This document shows, one piece after another, positions 1 through 7,182 of a stretch of 7,182 nucleotides of DNA; the first letter of the stretch is position 1; every line of letters begins with the position of its first letter. This stretch comes from Pseudomonas phage 17897. The translations under genes and the position numbers were made by a program. The stretch is taken from the sequence record OR621025.1, one strand, 5' to 3'. The notes under the pieces are model-generated. The model saw only the letters and a list, made by a program, of their open reading frames with translations. It had not been told where the DNA came from and searched no databases.

Positions 1-12
1 TTCGCATAATGT
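1..12. repeat. Terminal direct repeat copy 1: TTCGCATAATGT. It matches the XerC-binding arm plus the first 3 nt of the central region of proteobacterial dif sites (...TTCGCATAA|TGTATA...).
   Basis: The window has an identical 12-mer at 7171-7182. From memory, Xanthomonas inovirus attP cores read TATACATTATGCGAA, the reverse complement of TTCGCATAATGTATA, and the Pseudomonas dif XerC arm reads GATTCGCATAA. Confidence 0.7.
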
Positions 13-115
13 GCAGACGTTACGTTAGGCGCAGCCCGACCGAGGGGAGAGTCACCAGTCCGGAGAATCGCTCAGCGTCCGGACTGGTGATTTACACGTA
101 ACGTCCGTTATGCGA
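2..115 (+). other. Long nested imperfect hairpin (cruciform-capable). The pairings are 2-9 with 108-115 (tcgcataa/ttatgcga) and 16-25 with 96-105 (gacgttacgt/acgtaacgtc). An asymmetric 6-nt/2-nt internal loop lies between them. There is an inner perfect 13-bp inverted repeat, 52-64 with 78-90.
   Basis: Reverse-complement matches were verified base by base. In the packaged plus-strand ssDNA this would fold into a stem whose base is a dif-like XerC-arm duplex. Confidence 0.7.
52..90. repeat. Perfect 13-bp inverted repeat TCACCAGTCCGGA / TCCGGACTGGTGA with a 13-nt loop. It is the inner stem of the junction hairpin.
   Basis: Seen directly in the sequence. Confidence 0.9.
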
Positions 116-124
116 TGCCGCTTT

Positions 125-1018: not shown

Positions 1019-1372
1019 CTAGCGAAGAGCCTCTTGCTCGTACCCGAACAGCACTCCTTTCAGGGCTATCCGTGCTTGATTCCTGATCTCCGCCGGCAGG
1101 GCTTCGAATCTCCGCAATATCGGACGCATGTCGTCAGATATCAGTAGTTCGCTCTCGTCCATCAAGAGTTCGTCTGTGGTCACGCCCAGCACCTTGGCCA
1201 TGGCCAGGGCTTTGTCTGCGGACGGCATTCCATGGCCCGCTTCGTAGCCCGTATAGCTGGACTTGCTCACGCCTGCGGCCTCGTACACCTGCTGTTGTGT
1301 CAAGCCTCGGGCGGCCCGAAATTTTTTCAGGTTTGCTGCAAGGGTCATTTGTCGCTCTTTGAGTGTTTTCAT
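1019..1372 (-). CDS. XRE-family (Cro/C1-type) helix-turn-helix transcriptional repressor, 117 aa. The stop is fixed at 1019. The preferred start is the ATG giving MKTLKERQMTLAANLKKFRAARGLTQQQVYEAAGVSKSSYTGYEAG... In-frame alternatives lie upstream: ATG at 1459 (MDKGHH..., AGGA 2-3 nt upstream) and TTG at 1474 (the track start).
   Basis: Classic HTH_XRE signature (GLTQQQV.EAAGVS...Y...E). It is divergent from the Rep gene, as in phage immunity regions. The 29-aa upstream extension is low-complexity with a lower GC3, and it overlaps a good rightward promoter (-10 CATAAT at 1457-1462). No SD precedes the 1372 ATG, so the transcript may be leaderless or weakly initiated. Confidence 0.8.
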   Translation of the reverse strand: MKTLKERQMTLAANLKKFRAARGLTQQQVYEAAGVSKSSYTGYEAGHGMPSADKALAMAKVLGVTTDELLMDESELLISDDMRPILRRFEALPAEIRNQARIALKGVLFGYEQEALR

Positions 1373-1432
1373 GACTGGGTCAGCGTAGGTGCTGGCTGTT
1401 TGTACAGTTCCAGAATCCTGTGCATTTTCCCC

Positions 1433-1462
1433 TTGATTCTTGTGATGACCCTTGTCCATAAT
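1433..1462 (+). promoter_or_regulatory. Candidate rightward promoter for the Rep operon: -35 TTGATT (1433-1438), 18-bp spacer, -10 CATAAT (1457-1462). A tandem TTGATA-TTGACA pair (1486-1497) lies just downstream.
   Basis: Hexamer matches to the sigma70 consensus seen directly. Its position in the divergent repressor/Rep intergenic region is what one expects. Confidence 0.4.
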
Positions 1463-1506
1463 CCTGCCAATCAACTACCGAAATGTTGATATTGACAGGG
1501 ATTTTC

Positions 1507-2643
1507 ATGTTCATCGACTGGCTTAGCGTTTCACAAGAGCACCTTCACGACCTCCCGGTCGTGTGCGACGTGTTCACGCTCACAGTCGATGCCAATACCC
1601 ATGAGGTTCTGAGTACCCGCCAGCCGTGGTTCAAGCATGAGGGCAGTTACTCCACGTCGATCAAGATCAGTGTCCAGGGTCGTAAGGTTCGTGTTGAGGG
1701 GAATCCCAGCCGAATCGACCGCCAAGACAATCTTTTTGGCTACGTCACCATCGAGCAGTGCATTGCCGTCTACAACCAGCTTTTGGCTGAGTACGGCCTT
1801 CCCGCTTTCACCAGGTGCACTGAAATCCATCTCCGCGACGGTGCATCCGGCGCTCGCCCTGGCGATTGGGTTGCTGATGGATGCGCTATCGACCGCATCG
1901 ACCTGACGACGAATGTTTCCGTAGGGGAGGGCAACGTCCTCGCCTACCTGCGCGGCCTGTCTACCCAGCGTATTGGCCACTCTGTTGGCTACCTGTATCC
2001 GAATGGCCGGACCGTTGATTGGACTGCTGCCGGTAAAAGGAAAGGTGGTGTCCGTCTCCAGTATCGAAAGGCGTACGACAAAGCCTTTGAAATGGGCGAG
2101 CACCTTCGCCCGCGCGTTCTGCGCATGTTCGGCGATGAATCGCCAGAGCTGGCCTACGTGGACCAGCTGATTTCGTACTGCAACCAGCATGGCGTTGTGC
2201 GGCAAGAACAGGAGCTGAAACAGGAGTTCCTGAGCCGTGAAGGTCTTCGCTACTGGGGCCTTTTCAACGAAAACCGTCTCCGCGACATACACGATGAATT
2301 CCTGGCGGTGGACAAGAAACTGAAGGTAACGGCCATGGACCTTGCGACCATTTCTCAGCAACTGATTGCCGAGGGTGTTGTTACCAGCACCTATGCGGCC
2401 AACATGACCGCGATGGTCGCTATCAATTGGAGCAACGGGCAGCCTTTCGACAAGAACAACCGTTCCCTCCAGAAACATCGTGCACGTCTTCGTCAGATCG
2501 GTATCGACATCGCTAACCCTTGCGATACCAGCCGCTTCACGCCCGTCATTGTGCGCCAGGCTCGGGAGGTTACGAAAACCTACGATCTTCCGATTCCGGA
2601 CTGGTATCGCCGTCCTGTTGGCCATCTGCGGTTGGTGGCCTGA
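1507..2643 (+). CDS. Rolling-circle replication initiation protein of the Rep_trans / phage pII-CRI type, 378 aa. An alternative start is the ATG at 1483, which adds 8 aa.
   Basis: From memory, the motifs AIDRIDLTTN and GYLYPNGRT...VRLQYRKAYDKAFE resemble the conserved RxDxAxD and TLYxGSR...RIYDK active-site region of pT181 RepC-like Rep_trans initiators. These are also found in Pf3- and Neisseria-type inovirus Reps. ATG 1507 is preceded by AGGGA at 1496-1500. It is the first gene of the plus-strand operon, divergent from the repressor. Confidence 0.8.
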   Translation: MFIDWLSVSQEHLHDLPVVCDVFTLTVDANTHEVLSTRQPWFKHEGSYSTSIKISVQGRKVRVEGNPSRIDRQDNLFGYVTIEQCIAVYNQLLAEYGLPAFTRCTEIHLRDGASGARPGDWVADGCAIDRIDLTTNVSVGEGNVLAYLRGLSTQRIGHSVGYLYPNGRTVDWTAAGKRKGGVRLQYRKAYDKAFEMGEHLRPRVLRMFGDESPELAYVDQLISYCNQHGVVRQEQELKQEFLSREGLRYWGLFNENRLRDIHDEFLAVDKKLKVTAMDLATISQQLIAEGVVTSTYAANMTAMVAINWSNGQPFDKNNRSLQKHRARLRQIGIDIANPCDTSRFTPVIVRQAREVTKTYDLPIPDWYRRPVGHLRLVA

Positions 2644-3062: not shown

Positions 3063-3325
3063 TGGCTATCGAGATCAACCGCCAGTCGTACCTGTCGCTC
3101 CGGTCCTCGTTGGAGCTTGAACTGCTCGATGCCGGTATCGACTCGCCGGACCTGCTGAGCCGGCTTATGCGCCACGTGCTTGCCGCCGAATCCGCGACCC
3201 GCGCTGAGTCGCAAACCGTTCGCCGTGCGTTCGTCACGGCCCGTAGAAACCCGCTGCTGGGCGCAATCCCTCAGCACTCCCAGGGGCGCACAAATCGCCC
3301 GTATATCCGCAAGAGGAAACCCTAA
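3062..3325 (+). CDS. Hypothetical 87-aa protein (MAIEINRQSYLSLRSSLELELLDAG...RPYIRKRKP) with a basic C-terminal tail.
   Basis: ATG at 3062 overlaps the preceding TGA. The track start GTG 3053 is less likely. Its stop TAA overlaps the ATG of the ssDNA-binding gene (TAATG at 3323-3327). Confidence 0.6.
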   Translation: MAIEINRQSYLSLRSSLELELLDAGIDSPDLLSRLMRHVLAAESATRAESQTVRRAFVTARRNPLLGAIPQHSQGRTNRPYIRKRKP

Positions 3326-3633
3326 TGCCCTTCGTCTATCTCGGCCTGACTCGTGACGCCGGAACATCGAAAAAGACCGGCAACGCCTATGACATTTCGG
3401 TCGTGCACTTCGCTGTCGATGCGACGCAATCGACTCGGCCTGATCGCAAGTTTGCCCTCGGTCTGGAGCCTCAGAATCTGCCGATCGCGCCGGAAGCGGT
3501 GAGCCAGTTCCAGCGTGTTGAGCCGTTGAGTTCGGTCAACTTCGAGTTCGAGCCGGACCCTCGGAACATGCAGCGCAACCGTATTTGCGGCGTTAAGCCG
3601 GTGCCGAAAGCGGCTGCTCAGACGGCGTCGTAA
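3325..3633 (+). CDS. Gene-V-like ssDNA-binding protein, 102 aa.
   Basis: Strong RBS AAGAGGAAA at 3311-3319. It sits immediately before the coat module. The N-terminal segment ...LTRDAGTSKKTGNAYDISVVHFAVD resembles, from memory, the Pf3 gene 5 protein ...FTDSVRQGTSAKGNPYTFQEGFLHLED. The flexible Pro/Ala/Lys C-terminal tail (KPVPKAAAQTAS) is like Pf1 g5p. Confidence 0.7.
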   Translation: MPFVYLGLTRDAGTSKKTGNAYDISVVHFAVDATQSTRPDRKFALGLEPQNLPIAPEAVSQFQRVEPLSSVNFEFEPDPRNMQRNRICGVKPVPKAAAQTAS

Positions 3634-3825: not shown

Positions 3826-3960
3826 ATGGCTGATATTTTCGGTGCGGTAGACTTTTCCAGCGTTTCCACCTGGGTCGTAAGTGCCGGTGTTGCGATCATC
3901 GGTATTGCGATGGCGTTCAAAGGGATCGACCTGGGCAAGCGCGGCGTTAAGAAGGCCTAA
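3826..3960 (+). CDS. Major coat protein (pVIII-like), 44 aa, with no signal peptide: MADIFGAVDFSSVSTWVVSAGVAIIGIAMAFKGIDLGKRGVKKA.
   Basis: RBS AAAGAGGTGA at 3812-3821, with an in-frame stop immediately upstream. It has an acidic N-terminus, a hydrophobic core and a basic C-terminus (K, KR, KK). This is the textbook inovirus coat layout. The length and signal-less form match the Pf3 coat. A strong terminator follows. Confidence 0.85.
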   Translation: MADIFGAVDFSSVSTWVVSAGVAIIGIAMAFKGIDLGKRGVKKA

Positions 3961-3997: not shown

Positions 3998-4120
3998 ATG
4001 GAACCCTCTCAACTTACATTCACAGCGGCGGACCTTGCGCTGGTAGTTCACGCCCTGGTCTTCCATGGCGGGGTATTGGCAGCATGGGCATTTATCGCCG
4101 GTATGCGGCAGCGTTTCTAG
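3998..4120 (+). CDS. Possible 40-aa hydrophobic peptide MEPSQLTFTAADLALVVHALVFHGGVLAAWAFIAGMRQRF. It overlaps the pIII start by 37 nt.
   Basis: The ATG comes right after the terminator. No SD is present. It is TM-like. It may be real or may only be the 5' leader of the pIII gene. Confidence 0.3.
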   Translation: MEPSQLTFTAADLALVVHALVFHGGVLAAWAFIAGMRQRF

Positions 4121-5490
4121 CGTTCTCGTTTTTTCTCTCCTCTGAAGTTTCGTACTCCGCGACTCGAAAGAGCGTCACCGTGCCTAGTGCAAGTGTTGTT
4201 GCGCGCGGTGGCGGCTCTCCTTCTGTTTCCGGCCCATCTTTAAAGATTCCTGGCCAGCCTGGCGTTGAATACATTCCTCGATCTGGCGGCGGGGCTTCTG
4301 GCGTTCCCATCAAGATTATCCCGACGATTGATTTCTCTATTCCTAGGACGATCAAGGGGGGTGTTTCGTCGCTTAAAGGTGGTGTTGCTGGTGTTGCTGC
4401 CACCGCTGCGATGGCAATGGCTCTGGATAAGATTGGCGGTTTTATTGATGAAAACGGAAAGCCTGTAATCAAGAAGCCGCAAGGGGAAGTTCCGATTGAT
4501 GTATTTGGCTATAGGAGTTCTGCCTGGAGCTTCTGCAATACGTCTATATATCCGTCTCCCATGGGTTATATGGCATGCGCTCAGCCGCGCATAGAGTCTT
4601 ACGTGAGTTCTACTATTTCTTACAAGCTTCAGCCGGTCCCAAATAGTAGCGGTTATCGTGTCCTTTGGACTAATAACAAGACTGGTCAAGAGTCGCAGTT
4701 CTATGTTGAGGCGGTAGGTAATTGTCCGGGAATTTTGGTTGATTCGACCTGCTATCAGGAAGAGGTAATAAGCCCTTTCACTGATTCGGATTATGACAGC
4801 CTGACCGATACGTTGTCGGGGGTGGTGGACCCGAATTGGCTCAAGGACTTGTTAACTGCGACTTGTGAGGGGTCTTTGAATCCGGCTGCGTGCTATGACC
4901 AGATGTCTGAAACGACGCACCTTAGCGGCCCGTCCTCGGTGACGGGGCCTAAGACTTCAAGCACGACGACAACCACGAATCCTGATGGCACTACCAGCAC
5001 GACGACGAAGGACACTCAAACTAAGTATGAGATTAAGTATGGCGATAACTATATCGACTATACGGAAACGACCACGACTACGACAACGAAAGACGGTGAT
5101 AAAACTGAAGAGACGACTACGACTGACACTGACGACGTGACGGCAGAAGTTCCTCCCGAAGAGAAAGAGGAGGAGGGTGGTAGCTTTGAAGACTCTGAAT
5201 TTCCGGAAGTTAAGCCGTTCTATGAACAAAAATATGAGGATGGGCTGGAGGGTGTATGGCGTGACAAGCGCGCCGAATTTGAAGATACGGAGTTCATGAA
5301 ATTTCTCCAGGGGTTCATTCCGTCGTTTTCGGGGCGGTGTCCGGCATTTGGGCTGGATATGAATATTGCGTCTTGGGCGAACTATGGTTATCAGCAATTC
5401 GGGTCTATCTGCTATGTGCTTGATTTCGTGAAGGCGATTCTTATGGTTTCGGCCTTGTTCTTGTGTCGCGCTCTGATTTTCGGAGGTTGA
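4084..5490 (+). CDS. pIII-like minor coat/adsorption protein, 468 aa. It has an N-terminal signal peptide (MGIYRRYAAAFLAFSFFLSSEVSYSA), a Gly-rich segment, a Thr/Asp/Glu-rich linker and a C-terminal membrane anchor (FGSICYVLDFVKAILMVSALFLCRALIFGG).
   Basis: The domain architecture and its position after the coat gene and terminator fit pIII. The downstream pVI-like gene starts 2 nt after its stop. Confidence 0.85.
   Translation: MGIYRRYAAAFLAFSFFLSSEVSYSATRKSVTVPSASVVARGGGSPSVSGPSLKIPGQPGVEYIPRSGGGASGVPIKIIPTIDFSIPRTIKGGVSSLKGGVAGVAATAAMAMALDKIGGFIDENGKPVIKKPQGEVPIDVFGYRSSAWSFCNTSIYPSPMGYMACAQPRIESYVSSTISYKLQPVPNSSGYRVLWTNNKTGQESQFYVEAVGNCPGILVDSTCYQEEVISPFTDSDYDSLTDTLSGVVDPNWLKDLLTATCEGSLNPAACYDQMSETTHLSGPSSVTGPKTSSTTTTTNPDGTTSTTTKDTQTKYEIKYGDNYIDYTETTTTTTTKDGDKTEETTTTDTDDVTAEVPPEEKEEEGGSFEDSEFPEVKPFYEQKYEDGLEGVWRDKRAEFEDTEFMKFLQGFIPSFSGRCPAFGLDMNIASWANYGYQQFGSICYVLDFVKAILMVSALFLCRALIFGG
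4957..5182 (+). repeat. Low-complexity Thr-rich coding repeat (ACN codons: ACGACGACAACCACG...ACGACCACGACTACGACAACG...ACGACTACGACTGACACTGACGAC). It is followed by an acidic Glu/Lys stretch and encodes the pIII interdomain linker.
   Basis: Seen directly in the sequence. It is a likely hotspot for in-frame length variation. Confidence 0.7.
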
Positions 5491-5491
5491 T

Positions 5492-5830
5492 ATGGCTGGG
5501 GTTTTTAAGTTCTTTACTGCGCTGCTTGCTAAGATTGTTGGATTTGCAAAATGGCTGCTGCTGGTGTTCGCTCAGATATTTAAAGATGCGTGGAATATGG
5601 TTACGGATGTTGTTTGCTGGGTGTTTGAGCAGACGCTTTCTATTGCGGCCTCGGCACTGGATGCAATCGCGATACCGTTCAACCCGCAAACATATTATGC
5701 AATGATCCCAGCGGAGGCGGCTAACATGCTGGGCTATGTGGGTGTGCCTCAGGCTATAACGCTTATTGTCGGCGCTCTGGTCGTCCGATTCCTGTTGCAA
5801 ACTATCCCGTTTGTCCGCTGGGGGTCGTAA
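5492..5830 (+). CDS. pVI-like minor coat protein, 112 aa, multi-TM hydrophobic (MAGVFKFFTALLAKIVGFAKWLLLVFAQIF...).
   Basis: RBS GGAGG at 5483-5487. Its TAATG overlap with the Zot start and its size and position match pVI of Ff phages. Confidence 0.75.
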   Translation: MAGVFKFFTALLAKIVGFAKWLLLVFAQIFKDAWNMVTDVVCWVFEQTLSIAASALDAIAIPFNPQTYYAMIPAEAANMLGYVGVPQAITLIVGALVVRFLLQTIPFVRWGS

Positions 5831-6990
5831 TGATTAACTTGATCCTGGGCCAGCCTGGTGGCGGAAAGTCTCATGAGGCTGTTGTCTATCATGTTGTTCC
5901 GGCGTTGAATCAAGGGCGAAAGGTCATCACGAATTTGGCCCTGGATATGGACAAATTCAAAGCGTTTTTTCCGGAGTCTTGGCATTTGATTGAGCTTCGG
6001 GACTCTACTGTTGAAGTTTTCGAGAATGAAAGTGGCGAGGAGGAGAGTAGGGTAGTACGCCCGTTTAGCCGGGCTGACCACTATGCGGACCCTTGGCGGC
6101 ATCCTGAAGAGGGATTCGGGCCGTTGTATGTGATCGATGAATGTCACCTTTCGATACCGCTGCGCGGCACGCCTGTGCCGGTTGAGGAGTGGTATTCGCT
6201 TCATCGTCACGAACTGGCCGATGTGCTGTTGATCACTCAGAGTTACGGCAAGATCAACCGGGCAATTCGTGACCTTGTCCAGGTCGTGTATCGCTGTAAG
6301 AAGGCTACGGCTTTCGGCACCAATGATCGCTATATCCGCAAGGTCCAGGACGGTCTGCGCGGCGAGGTCGTGAATACCAGCATCCGGGAGTATCAGAAAC
6401 AGTTCTACGGATTCTGGAAGTCGCATACGCGGTCCTCGGCCGCAGGCCAGGAACTGGCCGCTAATGACATTGTGCCGATCTGGAAGCGCTGGCCGTTCAA
6501 AGGTGCTGCGCTGTGCTTCCTGATCGTCATCTGTCTGTCGACGTGGAACGTCACGCGGGAAAAGAAGCATGCGCCGCCGCCCAGGGTTCAGCCGGTGGCT
6601 GCGAGTGTCGACTCTGCGCCTGTAGGTGCGGCTCCAGCTGTTCCAGCGGCTCCGGTGATCGAGGCCAAGCCTCGGGGGCCTGAGCAGAAGTTACATCCGT
6701 TCCAGGGGCTGTCTATGCATCTGATCGCAACCATGCGTGGTAAGCGCTTTCGGGATGGTGTTGAGGAAGAGTTTCTGGGCGGTTTTATCCAGCTCGCGAA
6801 TAACGGGCAGCCGGTCAGTAAGGTGTCGTTTGATGACTTGCGCACCGCGGGTTATTCGATCACTTGGGAATCGCCGACGGTCGTTTCGCTGACGTATAAG
6901 GGCTTCGATATCGGTTACGTGGTAACGGATATGCCGCTGGTATCCGCAGCAAAGGACATCGCAGTAACCACGCCTGTGCAGGCGCCTTGA
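5830..6990 (+). CDS. zot: Zot/pI-family morphogenesis (assembly) ATPase, 386 aa.
   Basis: Walker A GQPGGGKS near the N-terminus. Walker B-like LYVIDECH. Single TM (AALCFLIVICLSTW) at about residue 220. A Pro/Ala-rich periplasmic linker follows, then a C-terminal domain. This matches the pI/Zot topology. Confidence 0.9.
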   Translation: MINLILGQPGGGKSHEAVVYHVVPALNQGRKVITNLALDMDKFKAFFPESWHLIELRDSTVEVFENESGEEESRVVRPFSRADHYADPWRHPEEGFGPLYVIDECHLSIPLRGTPVPVEEWYSLHRHELADVLLITQSYGKINRAIRDLVQVVYRCKKATAFGTNDRYIRKVQDGLRGEVVNTSIREYQKQFYGFWKSHTRSSAAGQELAANDIVPIWKRWPFKGAALCFLIVICLSTWNVTREKKHAPPPRVQPVAASVDSAPVGAAPAVPAAPVIEAKPRGPEQKLHPFQGLSMHLIATMRGKRFRDGVEEEFLGGFIQLANNGQPVSKVSFDDLRTAGYSITWESPTVVSLTYKGFDIGYVVTDMPLVSAAKDIAVTTPVQAP

Positions 6991-6997
6991 GGGAATT

Positions 6998-7022
6998 GGG
7001 AGGGCTCCCGCTTGCGGGAGGG
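6998..7022. other. GC-rich inverted/direct repeat GGGAGGGCTCCCgcttgcGGGAGGG just after the Zot stop.
   Basis: CTCCC/GGGAG arms with a direct repeat of GGGAGGG. It may be a terminator or an origin-associated structure. Confidence 0.4.
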
Positions 7023-7170
7023 ACCCGATTCCCGGCGGTGCCTGTGTTCTCGATTAACCCCTTTGACGGTCGTTCCAGGGTCAGCCCAAAGGCTCCAGGC
7101 CCTGGATATCTTCGCCCGTTGCCCAGCGTCGATTTCAGCGTCGGATGGTTCGGGGGTTCGCATCTCTGGC

Positions 7171-7182
7171 TTCGCATAATGT
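7171..7182. repeat. Terminal direct repeat copy 2: TTCGCATAATGT. A partial extra TTCGCAT lies 9 nt upstream at about 7156-7162.
   Basis: Exact match to nt 1-12. The sequence reads ggTTCGCATctctggcTTCGCATAATGT. Confidence 0.7.

Follow-up and report, generated by a model that had tools for sequence, protein, structure and literature searches.

We analyzed a stretch of 7,182 nucleotides (nt; record OR621025.1, hereafter the window), which is the prophage Pf 17897 of Pseudomonas aeruginosa cut at its attL/attR attachment sites (1-12 = 7171-7182), and found that its two ends together form the phage attachment site (attP), which is intact as 7168-7170 joined to 1-119, the linear record being cut within it. 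We consider it likely, with a probability of about 75%, that this is the attP of a CTX-type integrative mobile element that exploits Xer (IMEX), that is, a filamentous phage using host XerC/XerD with its folded plus strand as the substrate. The evidence consists of integration at the host dif site, the position of the crossover, the use of one of two inverted sites (site 1), the fold, covariation, arrays of elements at one locus, and the finding of no phage recombinase in Pfam and PHROGs scans.

Integration at the host dif site

An exact lookup of the Zot protein returned one chromosomal contig only, a 339-kb contig of GCA_022553095.1, within which a 21-kb locus (L007) carries the prophage with attL at 4170-4200 and attR at 11537-11567. 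At the left junction (4170-4183) host sequence ...TTTAGATTCGCATAATGT is followed by phage sequence GCAGACG / GCAGACGTTACG, and at the right junction phage sequence ...CTGGCTTCGCATAATGT is followed by host sequence ATATTATGTTAAATTAAAT. Therefore, from the direct repeat and both flanks, the host site is the canonical dif, GATTCGCATAA-TGTATA-TTATGTTAAAT (in full GATTCGCATAATGTATATTATGTTAAAT). The direct repeat of 12 nt, TTCGCATAATGT (also written ttcgcataatgt), is located at 1-12 and again at 7171-7182, and the crossover falls inside the XerC arm plus TGT, TTCGCATAA-TGT, within this repeat. At the right end a complete dif is regenerated, GGCTTCGCATAA-TGTATA-TTATGTTAAAT, in which the phage arm is joined to host ATATTATGTTAAAT, and a second attR with the same regeneration of dif was present in another locus, L057. 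A preliminary description of the window, made from its letters, had recognized a dif-like XerC arm with TGT at the element boundary without mentioning the second terminal copy (7171-7182); the host dif indeed shares this arm, and the prophage sits in dif. Integration at dif and the position of the crossover are thus shown directly from chromosomal junctions, and from the target site we infer dependence on host Xer.

The 12-mer occurred three times in the 21-kb locus (0.05 expected), and its exact 8-mer TCGCATAA was found in only three places of the window (1-12, 7171-7182 and, inverted, 108-115). Homology to dif is restricted to the bases beside the XerC arm, the phage centre diverging past TGT, and relatives with TGA instead of TGT have an 11-nt repeat. 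The circular, virion-derived record NEU2023 has the same junction, uninterrupted. Further, no tRNA or tmRNA was located within 21 kb around the prophage and no integrase was found by the profile scans, which leaves the preliminary proposal of Xer-based integration standing against a tRNA- or integrase-based one. A pattern scan for the Pseudomonas-type site returned no match in the GTDB species-representative genomes; the host-flank evidence consists of L007, L057, two attL flanks in IMG/VR and four GenBank prophage records.

At 11339-11540 of L007 a first copy ends in an intact phage-phage junction (attP), after which come the first 57 nt of the phage, a scaffold gap of about 100 N, and the last 42 nt with attR. 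This is a tandem array or a collapsed repeat; the tandem is at least partial, and its attP junction is intact. In addition, eight IMG/VR contigs hold two to four elements head to tail at one locus (L026, L028, L034 and L057 among the loci), with identical copies in L034 (spacing 7,643 nt) and different attP variants in L026 and L028. At each array junction the XerC arm and TG of the preceding element are followed by the next element's own centre. Such arrays are consistent with irreversible integration and with virions arising from tandem copies.

Structure of the attachment site

The attP consists of two inverted dif-like sites with the following parts:

7168-7182, plus strand: XerC arm of site 1, GGCTTCGCATAA, followed by TGT; phage-borne, attR side (7171-7182 duplicates 1-12)
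1-12, plus strand: crossover core on the attL side, a 9-nt XerC arm (TTCGCATAA) followed by TGT; host-derived or exchanged bases in the prophage
10-19, plus strand: central region of site 1, TGTGCAGACG, 10 nt, with TG(T) homologous to the dif centre TGTATA
12-15, plus strand: predicted top-strand bulge TGCA within the site 1 centre; 16-19 pair with 102-105
20-30, plus strand: XerD-like arm of site 1, TTACGTTAGGC, 7/11 to TTATGTTAAAT
31-89, plus strand: forked interior between the sites, with small hairpins at 28-36 and 40-47, a main hairpin at 51-64/78-91, and GAGAAT at 63-68 running into the loop
90-101, minus strand: XerD-like arm of site 2, reverse complement TTACGTGTAAAT, 10/11 to dif if one base is bulged, 7/11 ungapped
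102-107, minus strand: central region of site 2, reverse complement CGGACG, 6 nt, not homologous to the dif centre TGTATA
108-119, minus strand: XerC arm of site 2, reverse complement GGCATCGCATAA, pairing with 7168-7170 and 1-9 with one T.T mismatch (1/116)

Set beside the two sites of CTXphi, the arms and centres are as follows:

Window site 1 (plus strand): XerC arm GCTTCGCATAA, 10/11 to dif; centre TGTGCAGACG, 10 nt; XerD arm TTACGTTAGGC, 7/11
Window site 2 (minus strand, reverse complement of 90-119): XerC arm GCATCGCATAA, 9/11; centre CGGACG, 6 nt; XerD arm TTACGTGTAAA(T), 7/11 ungapped, 10/11 with one extra base
CTXphi attP1: XerC arm AGTGCGTATTA; centre 12 nt; XerD arm TTATGTTGAGG
CTXphi attP2: XerC arm AATGCGTATTA; centre 7 nt; XerD arm TTATGTTACGG

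The XerD arms of the window are separated by 59 nt, and those of CTXphi, measured identically, by 90 nt. The XerD arm had been placed at 16-25 in the preliminary description, but the 11-mer at the 6-bp spacing, GACGTTACGTT (16-26), matches the dif XerD arm at 2/11 positions only, and the conserved arm is instead TTACGTTAGGC at 20-30, with TTACGTGTAAAT on the other strand. Judging by their centres, neither site appears suitable as a duplex, since that of site 1 is over-long (10 nt) and that of site 2 is CGGACG where dif has TGTATA.

Predicted fold of the plus strand

As the preliminary description had stated, 2-9 (tcgcataa) is the exact reverse complement of 108-115 and 16-25 (gacgttacgt) that of 96-105; we found a third perfect inverted repeat of 13 nt at 52-64/78-90. 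The predicted single-stranded DNA (ssDNA) fold of 1-130 uses all three (-34.2 kcal/mol, z = -5.9, equalled by 0/200 shuffles), so that the pairing of 2-9 with 108-115 is favoured as anticipated. With the true circular junction (7164-7170 joined to 1-123) the fold reaches -37.8 kcal/mol (z = -6.1) and adds three pairs around the T.T mismatch, GGC at 7168-7170 with GCC at 117-119. The centre of the fold differs from the 6-nt/2-nt bubble (TGTGCA over CG) first described: T10.G107 and G11-C106 are paired, pairing runs without a break along the bottom strand (96-115), and the top strand alone is bulged, at 12-15 (TGCA).

The window and five divergent relatives had z values between -5.9 and -7.7 with the same predicted topology; in four of the six folds the bottom strand was continuous and the top strand alone was bulged, and in the other two there was one extra unpaired base per strand beside the XerC arm. 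The arms of CTXphi attP(+) have also been described with unpaired bases (PMC3442271). The T.T mismatch (T.G in some variants) recurs at position 1/116 of the XerC-arm stem in unrelated families, e.g. cgcTtcGCATAA ... TTATGCgcTgcg.

We took the genuine CTXphi attP from IMG/VR, where the matches of a 15-mer search were mostly due to chance and L069 and L070 alone were genuine. Folded with the same tool, its XerC-arm stem was followed by a top-strand bulge of 5 nt after TG, then by a second stem and an interior that is forked, with z = -7.5.

Site used for recombination

In every readable case site 1 was joined to the XerC arm of the host (AGAT-TCGCATAA) or to that of the preceding element, and the right half of the host dif was always preceded by GGCT-TCGCATAA, the own arm of site 1. 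Site 2 was preceded by its own arm in 66/66 instances and was never joined to the host. All mapped crossovers were thus located at the long-spacer site 1 (duplex centre 10-12 bp) and none at the inverted site with the 6-bp centre. The use of site 1, and not of site 2 with its canonical centre length, is what would be expected if the substrate were the folded plus strand with XerC cutting the top strand, and duplex recombination would hardly account for it. The packaged strand of inoviruses is the coding strand of the structural genes, and the plus strand codes for all structural genes here; therefore, the packaged strand is the plus strand.

Conservation and covariation

An IMG/VR pattern scan for the Pseudomonas-type site gave 56 stretches, corresponding to 30 unique variants. 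TTACGTTA of the site 1 XerD arm was invariant in 30/30 variants, as was the TA after TTACGT, a position free in the search pattern, and the bottom-strand motif ATTTACACGTAA was likewise invariant in 30/30 variants though the search pattern had left it free. The bottom spacer was 6 nt long in 29/30 variants and the top spacer 10-12 nt.

In an alignment of 20 variants, 93.8% of the cells were paired (25-35% with slid partners), 12 pairs were altered on both sides (compensatory), and doubly changed cells numbered 78 against 24.5 +/- 4.3 in shuffles, with 0/500 shuffles as high. Covariation was seen in the four pairs that separate the bulge from the XerD core (GACG/CGTC, GGGA/TCCC, GGCG/CGCC or TGCC; columns 19-21 with 106-108). 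In the inner hairpin (helix 3), 9/13 pairs change on both sides, so that the sequence is replaced wholesale and the pairing is kept; MAFFT misregisters this hairpin in some rows, and the helix 3 pairing of 84.9% is therefore an underestimate, for which reason we relied on individual folds.

Similar elements in other inoviruses

Two relaxed IMG/VR scans were performed with the outer XerC-arm bases left free, one requiring the long and the other the short spacer on the matched strand. These scans and the earlier loci combined gave 99 unique elements in which both inverted sites have a XerD-like arm. The XerC arms varied (GCTTCG-, AGTTCG-, ATTTCG-, GATTCG- and GGTGCG-CATAA among them) with the inverted partner tracking the arm, and elements with the enterobacterial arm GGTGCGCATAA were recovered in the same layout. 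The preliminary statement that attP is an ordinary duplex site in most other inoviruses is weakened by these elements. All of them (99/99) were asymmetric, one site having a spacer of 6-7 nt (95/99) and the other one of 8-13 nt; symmetric elements (short/short or long/long) were absent among the 99, though each scan could have detected them. The short-spacer scan chiefly re-found the same elements via the opposite strand and was still usable in testing for symmetric ones. The first centre bases were left unused, TG being fixed by the search patterns.

The strand with the long-spacer site at its 5' side (packaged sense) folded better than its complement in 64 elements, and the reverse was true in 32 (mean -1.6 kcal/mol), with 1.69 G.T pairs on the packaged-sense strand versus 0.57 on the complement. 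Moreover, a motif GAnAAT (GAAAAT, GACAAT, GAGAAT, GATAAT) was located in the apical loop of the inner hairpin, mostly unpaired (63-68 in the window), and was present on the packaged-sense strand in 42/99 elements versus 2 on the complement and 2.2 +/- 1.4 in shuffles. GAnAAT resembles a -10 hexamer and may be a determinant of minus-strand priming or of packaging.

We propose, tentatively and with somewhat less than even confidence, that the 115-nt element is a compact multifunctional ssDNA module and that its spacer rule is a general law of folded attP across proteobacterial inoviruses. The base of the stem may be the Xer substrate and the interior hairpin with its unpaired GAnAAT loop a minus-strand priming site or a packaging signal, and the spacer rule (8-13 nt on one site and 6-7 nt on the other, symmetry never occurring) may govern the design of folded attP in general. 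If this is true, CTX-type ssDNA integration is a major route of inovirus lysogeny, beyond Vibrio and Yersinia.

Proposed mechanism and alternatives

Sites 1 (10-nt centre) and 2 (6-nt centre) of the plus strand, being inverted, would anneal into a dif-like duplex of about 28 bp, which would consist of the XerC arm, the 6-nt bottom-strand centre and the XerD arm, with a 4-nt top-strand bulge and a forked hairpin cap. Host XerC would then cleave the top strand after TTCGCATAA and swap it with the top strand of the chromosomal dif, strand exchange being guided by TG(T) pairing beside the cut. Through replication the resulting pseudo-Holliday junction would become a prophage, with a dead hybrid site (10-bp centre) to its left and a regenerated dif to its right. 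All the sequence-level features defining a CTX-type IMEX that could be tested were found.

The CTXphi-style folded attP of the preliminary description is supported by the fold, the covariation (12 pairs), the spacer geometry parallel to that of CTXphi, the spacer asymmetry of the 99 elements and the crossovers at site 1. Several points weigh against this mechanism. The ssDNA substrate and irreversibility, together with catalysis by XerC only and replicative resolution, would carry over by analogy with CTXphi, as would virion production from tandem copies. The arm duplexes are identical in the folded and the duplex forms and the centre alone differs, so that duplex recombination at site 1 would be compatible with the sequence; the site 2 centre of several relatives is 6 nt long and starts with TG, and might work as a duplex site, of which no integrant was seen among the junctions. 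The XerD-like arms match dif at 7/11 positions only and are weak singly, and it is their invariance and spacing that carry the case; the search patterns prescribed both the XerC-arm stem and the TTACGT core, the invariance of which is therefore partly a matter of ascertainment, and the variants are related, so that the shuffle statistics overstate independence. In addition, the strand bias is weak within the Pseudomonas family alone (16 vs 9).

Recombination of the double-stranded replicative form at site 1 by XerC catalysis, as in VGJphi-type phages, with the inverted copy and the hairpin irrelevant, would leave identical prophage junctions, and many Xer-exploiting phages, including those of Xanthomonas, use a duplex attP. 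We nevertheless regard it as unlikely here. In site 1 a distance of 10 nt separates the arms (in relatives 8-13 nt), and the 12-bp attP1 of CTXphi was reported to be non-functional as a duplex for that reason (PMC4246890); the XerD arm at 6-bp spacing matches dif at 2/11 positions, with first bases that are free to vary and that covary with the opposite arm. Nor would a duplex site explain why inverted second XerC and XerD arms at the canonical 6-7 nt spacing are conserved in 99 elements. A recent preprint states that all VGJ-type elements carry XafV, and no Xaf-type factor was detected here by Pfam and PHROGs, no direct search with a XafV sequence or model having been made. Where VGJ-type phages have a single duplex attP at canonical spacing, the crossover site here has a 10-nt centre and a conserved inverted partner. 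The TLC type (XafT/DUF3653, XerD-first, attP without XerD arm) also differs, in that the window had no DUF3653 match, XerD-like arms are present and the dif homology lies on the XerC side.

Filamentous phages of the Ff group use ssDNA hairpins for packaging and minus-strand priming, and the hairpins of Xanthomonas phages for packaging are known. The inner hairpin covaries, and its GAnAAT is strand-specific and mostly unpaired in 42/99 elements, so that the 115-nt hairpin could be mainly a packaging signal and/or a minus-strand origin, with dif-like arms paired incidentally at its base. Such a role may explain the interior (31-89) only, and not a stem base whose arms track the dif type with 6-7 nt bottom spacing across families; it is compatible with integration and plausible for the interior, and as the sole function of the hairpin it is quite improbable.

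It seems very improbable that the substrate is a cruciform, extruded by the supercoiled replicative form, and not free ssDNA. The same inverted repeat could in principle extrude, and in its letters would look no different from an ssDNA hairpin, but we expect its imperfections (bulge, mismatches, forked 59-nt interior) to disfavour extrusion, selection on one strand is indicated by the G.T pairs (1.69 vs 0.57) and GAnAAT (42 vs 2), and the published CTXphi substrate is ssDNA (PMC3442271, PMC4246890). Short terminal overlaps are common in circular assemblies, but the view that the 12-nt terminal repeat is such an overlap, similar to dif by chance, is refuted by the location of the element within a 339-kb chromosomal contig with host sequence on the left and the dif right half on the right, and by the report of the prophage with 12-nt direct repeats (PMC10675462).

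Prophage record and gene content

Pf 17897 was described as a group-7 prophage of 7,182 nt with 12-nt terminal direct repeats and without integrase (Evseev et al., Viruses 2023, PMC10675462). Its site was named "intergenic region", and the authors suggested that such phages may use host-encoded integrases; the words attP, hairpin and inverted are absent from that text, and XerC occurs only within one title of its reference list. In BLAST against phage records, similarity was patchy and exclusively to filamentous phages of P. aeruginosa. The host is Pseudomonas and not Xanthomonas, with whose inovirus attP cores the preliminary description had compared the motif. The closest record over the attP region was Pf 36-2 (OR621019; 96.6% across 1-119), deposited as linear with a 12-nt repeat_region at both ends.

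The gene content is CTXphi-like according to Pfam and PHROGs profile scans, which assigned the following genes:

1019-1474, minus strand: divergent helix-turn-helix repressor (RstR-like)
1483-2643, plus strand: rolling-circle replication initiator of G2P/RstA type (PF05155, PF05144; phrog_702, E = 2.5e-110)
3325-3633, plus strand: RstB-family protein (PF07459, 30.2 bits, cut-off 26.2; phrog_929, E = 3.4e-33)
3826-3960: major coat protein
4084-5490: pIII-like protein
5492-5830: DUF2523 protein
5830-6990: Zot

The initiator would generate the plus-strand ssDNA substrate. RstB is the ssDNA-binding protein of CTXphi and is needed for integration. In the same scans no integrase, resolvase or transposase was found in any plausible open reading frame (ORF), including long antisense ORFs, in agreement with the earlier statement that no tyrosine or serine recombinase is encoded, and none of the ORFs, the antisense ones included, matched a DUF3653-type factor. 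Scans of the region with Rfam and for tRNAs, promoters and terminators all came out negative.

We also considered ORF 254-514 as a Xer cofactor, for which no grounds were found: it had no significant PDB sequence match and no Pfam match, and its only assignment was PHROG 8031 (unknown function), a relative's copy being annotated "7NUV-like DNA-binding". Between the attP hairpin and this first ORF (ATG at 254), the region 120-250 (also 120-250 of L001) has several GGTACC palindromes, and a 21-nt direct repeat AG[A/C]ACGACCTGGTCGA[A/G]AATA lies at 146-166 and 213-233. The layout of this region is alike in Pf 36-2, with GCTAGC replacing GGTACC. These repeats look like iteron- or operator-type sites whose specificity shifts along with the adjacent small protein (254-514).

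A hairpin CTCCCG-CTTG-CGGGAG is located at 7013-7028, directly past the zot stop codon; as the recognition sequence reported at the replication origin of phiLf is CTTG, the plus-strand origin could lie here. Pf 36-2 has no hairpin of this type, and its zot stops 9 nt ahead of the repeat. The segment 537-722 shares about 85% identity with Pf1-like phages (in the PA0719 / "putative toxin" / DUF5447 region), the remainder of the genome being unrelated, which on sequence grounds is evidence of mosaic exchange between two Pf lineages. Another record, phage 5a-DAzarov (PQ758391, L006), is filed under Caudoviricetes though it is an inovirus of this group; its "hypothetical protein" coding sequence at 4674-4814, which overlies the attP hairpin (4718-4831), probably does not represent a gene.

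Pf phages are clinically relevant (biofilm, chronic infection). Placing the 7-kb Pf phages as dif-targeting CTX-type IMEX provides a concrete, testable integration mechanism. If it is true, single prophages cannot excise, virions need tandem or mixed arrays, and hybrid phages and array remodelling can be expected at the P. aeruginosa terminus, as in cholera evolution. Further, the 99 elements and the spacer rule provide a sequence signature for locating folded attP in other bacteria.

Comparison with known systems

Previous studies reported that CTXphi has an attP1 centre of 12 bp and an attP2 centre of 5-7 bp, that neither is usable as a duplex, and that specificity is set by the bases beside the XerC arm (PMC4246890, PMC3442271). 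The centres measured here on the genuine CTXphi sequence (12 and 7 nt) are in agreement with this. Like CTXphi, Pf 17897 integrates at dif with no phage recombinase (here, none found by Pfam/PHROGs) and has two inverted dif-like sites, of which the one with the over-long centre (12 nt in CTXphi, 10 nt here) bears the TGT homology beside the XerC arm and the other has a centre of 6-7 nt. The outer bases of the XerD arms diverge from dif in both phages, the predicted topology is stem, bulge, stem and fork in both, and both have an RstR-like repressor, an RstA-like Rep, an RstB-family protein, Zot and arrays at dif. Unlike CTXphi, the host here is Pseudomonas with the dif arm TTCGCATAA and not GTGCGTATTA, 59 nt (versus 90) separate the sites, full pairing of the bottom centre leaves a clean bulge of 4 nt, the site directly follows zot and toxin genes are lacking, and GAnAAT is absent from CTXphi. 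Nucleotide similarity between the two is limited to the dif-like motifs, and the folded attP of Pf 17897 is predicted from sequence.

For YpfPhi of Yersinia pestis, an inverted pair of XerC/XerD sites was proposed from sequence analysis to act like the CTXphi attP, with dif regenerated at the 3' end and tandem arrays of two to four copies (PMC4266046), and CUS-1phi of E. coli K1 was treated as CTXphi-related (PMC3442271). These phages differ from Pf 17897 in host, dif arm and gene content, and their status is equally predictive.

VGJphi-type phages and the Xanthomonas phages of phiLf/Cf1c/XacF1 type are likewise integrase-free filamentous phages which enter dif through a match to the XerC arm; this same arm, reverse-complemented, gives the Xanthomonas core TATACATTATGCGAA, as the preliminary description had correctly noted. 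They have a single duplex attP of about 29 bp (PMC4246890), with homology in Xanthomonas spanning the whole centre TGTATA, together with a DUF3653 protein in phiLf-type phages and XafV in VGJ-type elements, whereas no such factor (Pfam/PHROGs scans) or single-site layout was found in the window.

Pf1-like prophages are about 10-13 kb long, encode their own tyrosine integrase and target tRNA, tmRNA or direct repeats (PMC7549136). Pf 17897 shares with the classical Pf prophages (Pf4, Pf5 and related) the host species, the filamentous type and a Zot-like assembly ATPase, has the segment at 537-722 in common with Pf1-like phages, and differs from the latter (Primolicivirus) in its 7.17-kb length, its dif target, the integrase not found by the scans and the lack of tRNA/tmRNA in the 21-kb locus. 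In the literature we found no paper on dif integration or folded attP in Pseudomonas phages. The CTX-type mechanism is already known, and has been proposed outside Vibrio, but is not previously reported for Pseudomonas, and the folded-attP architecture is widespread in inovirus-sized contigs.

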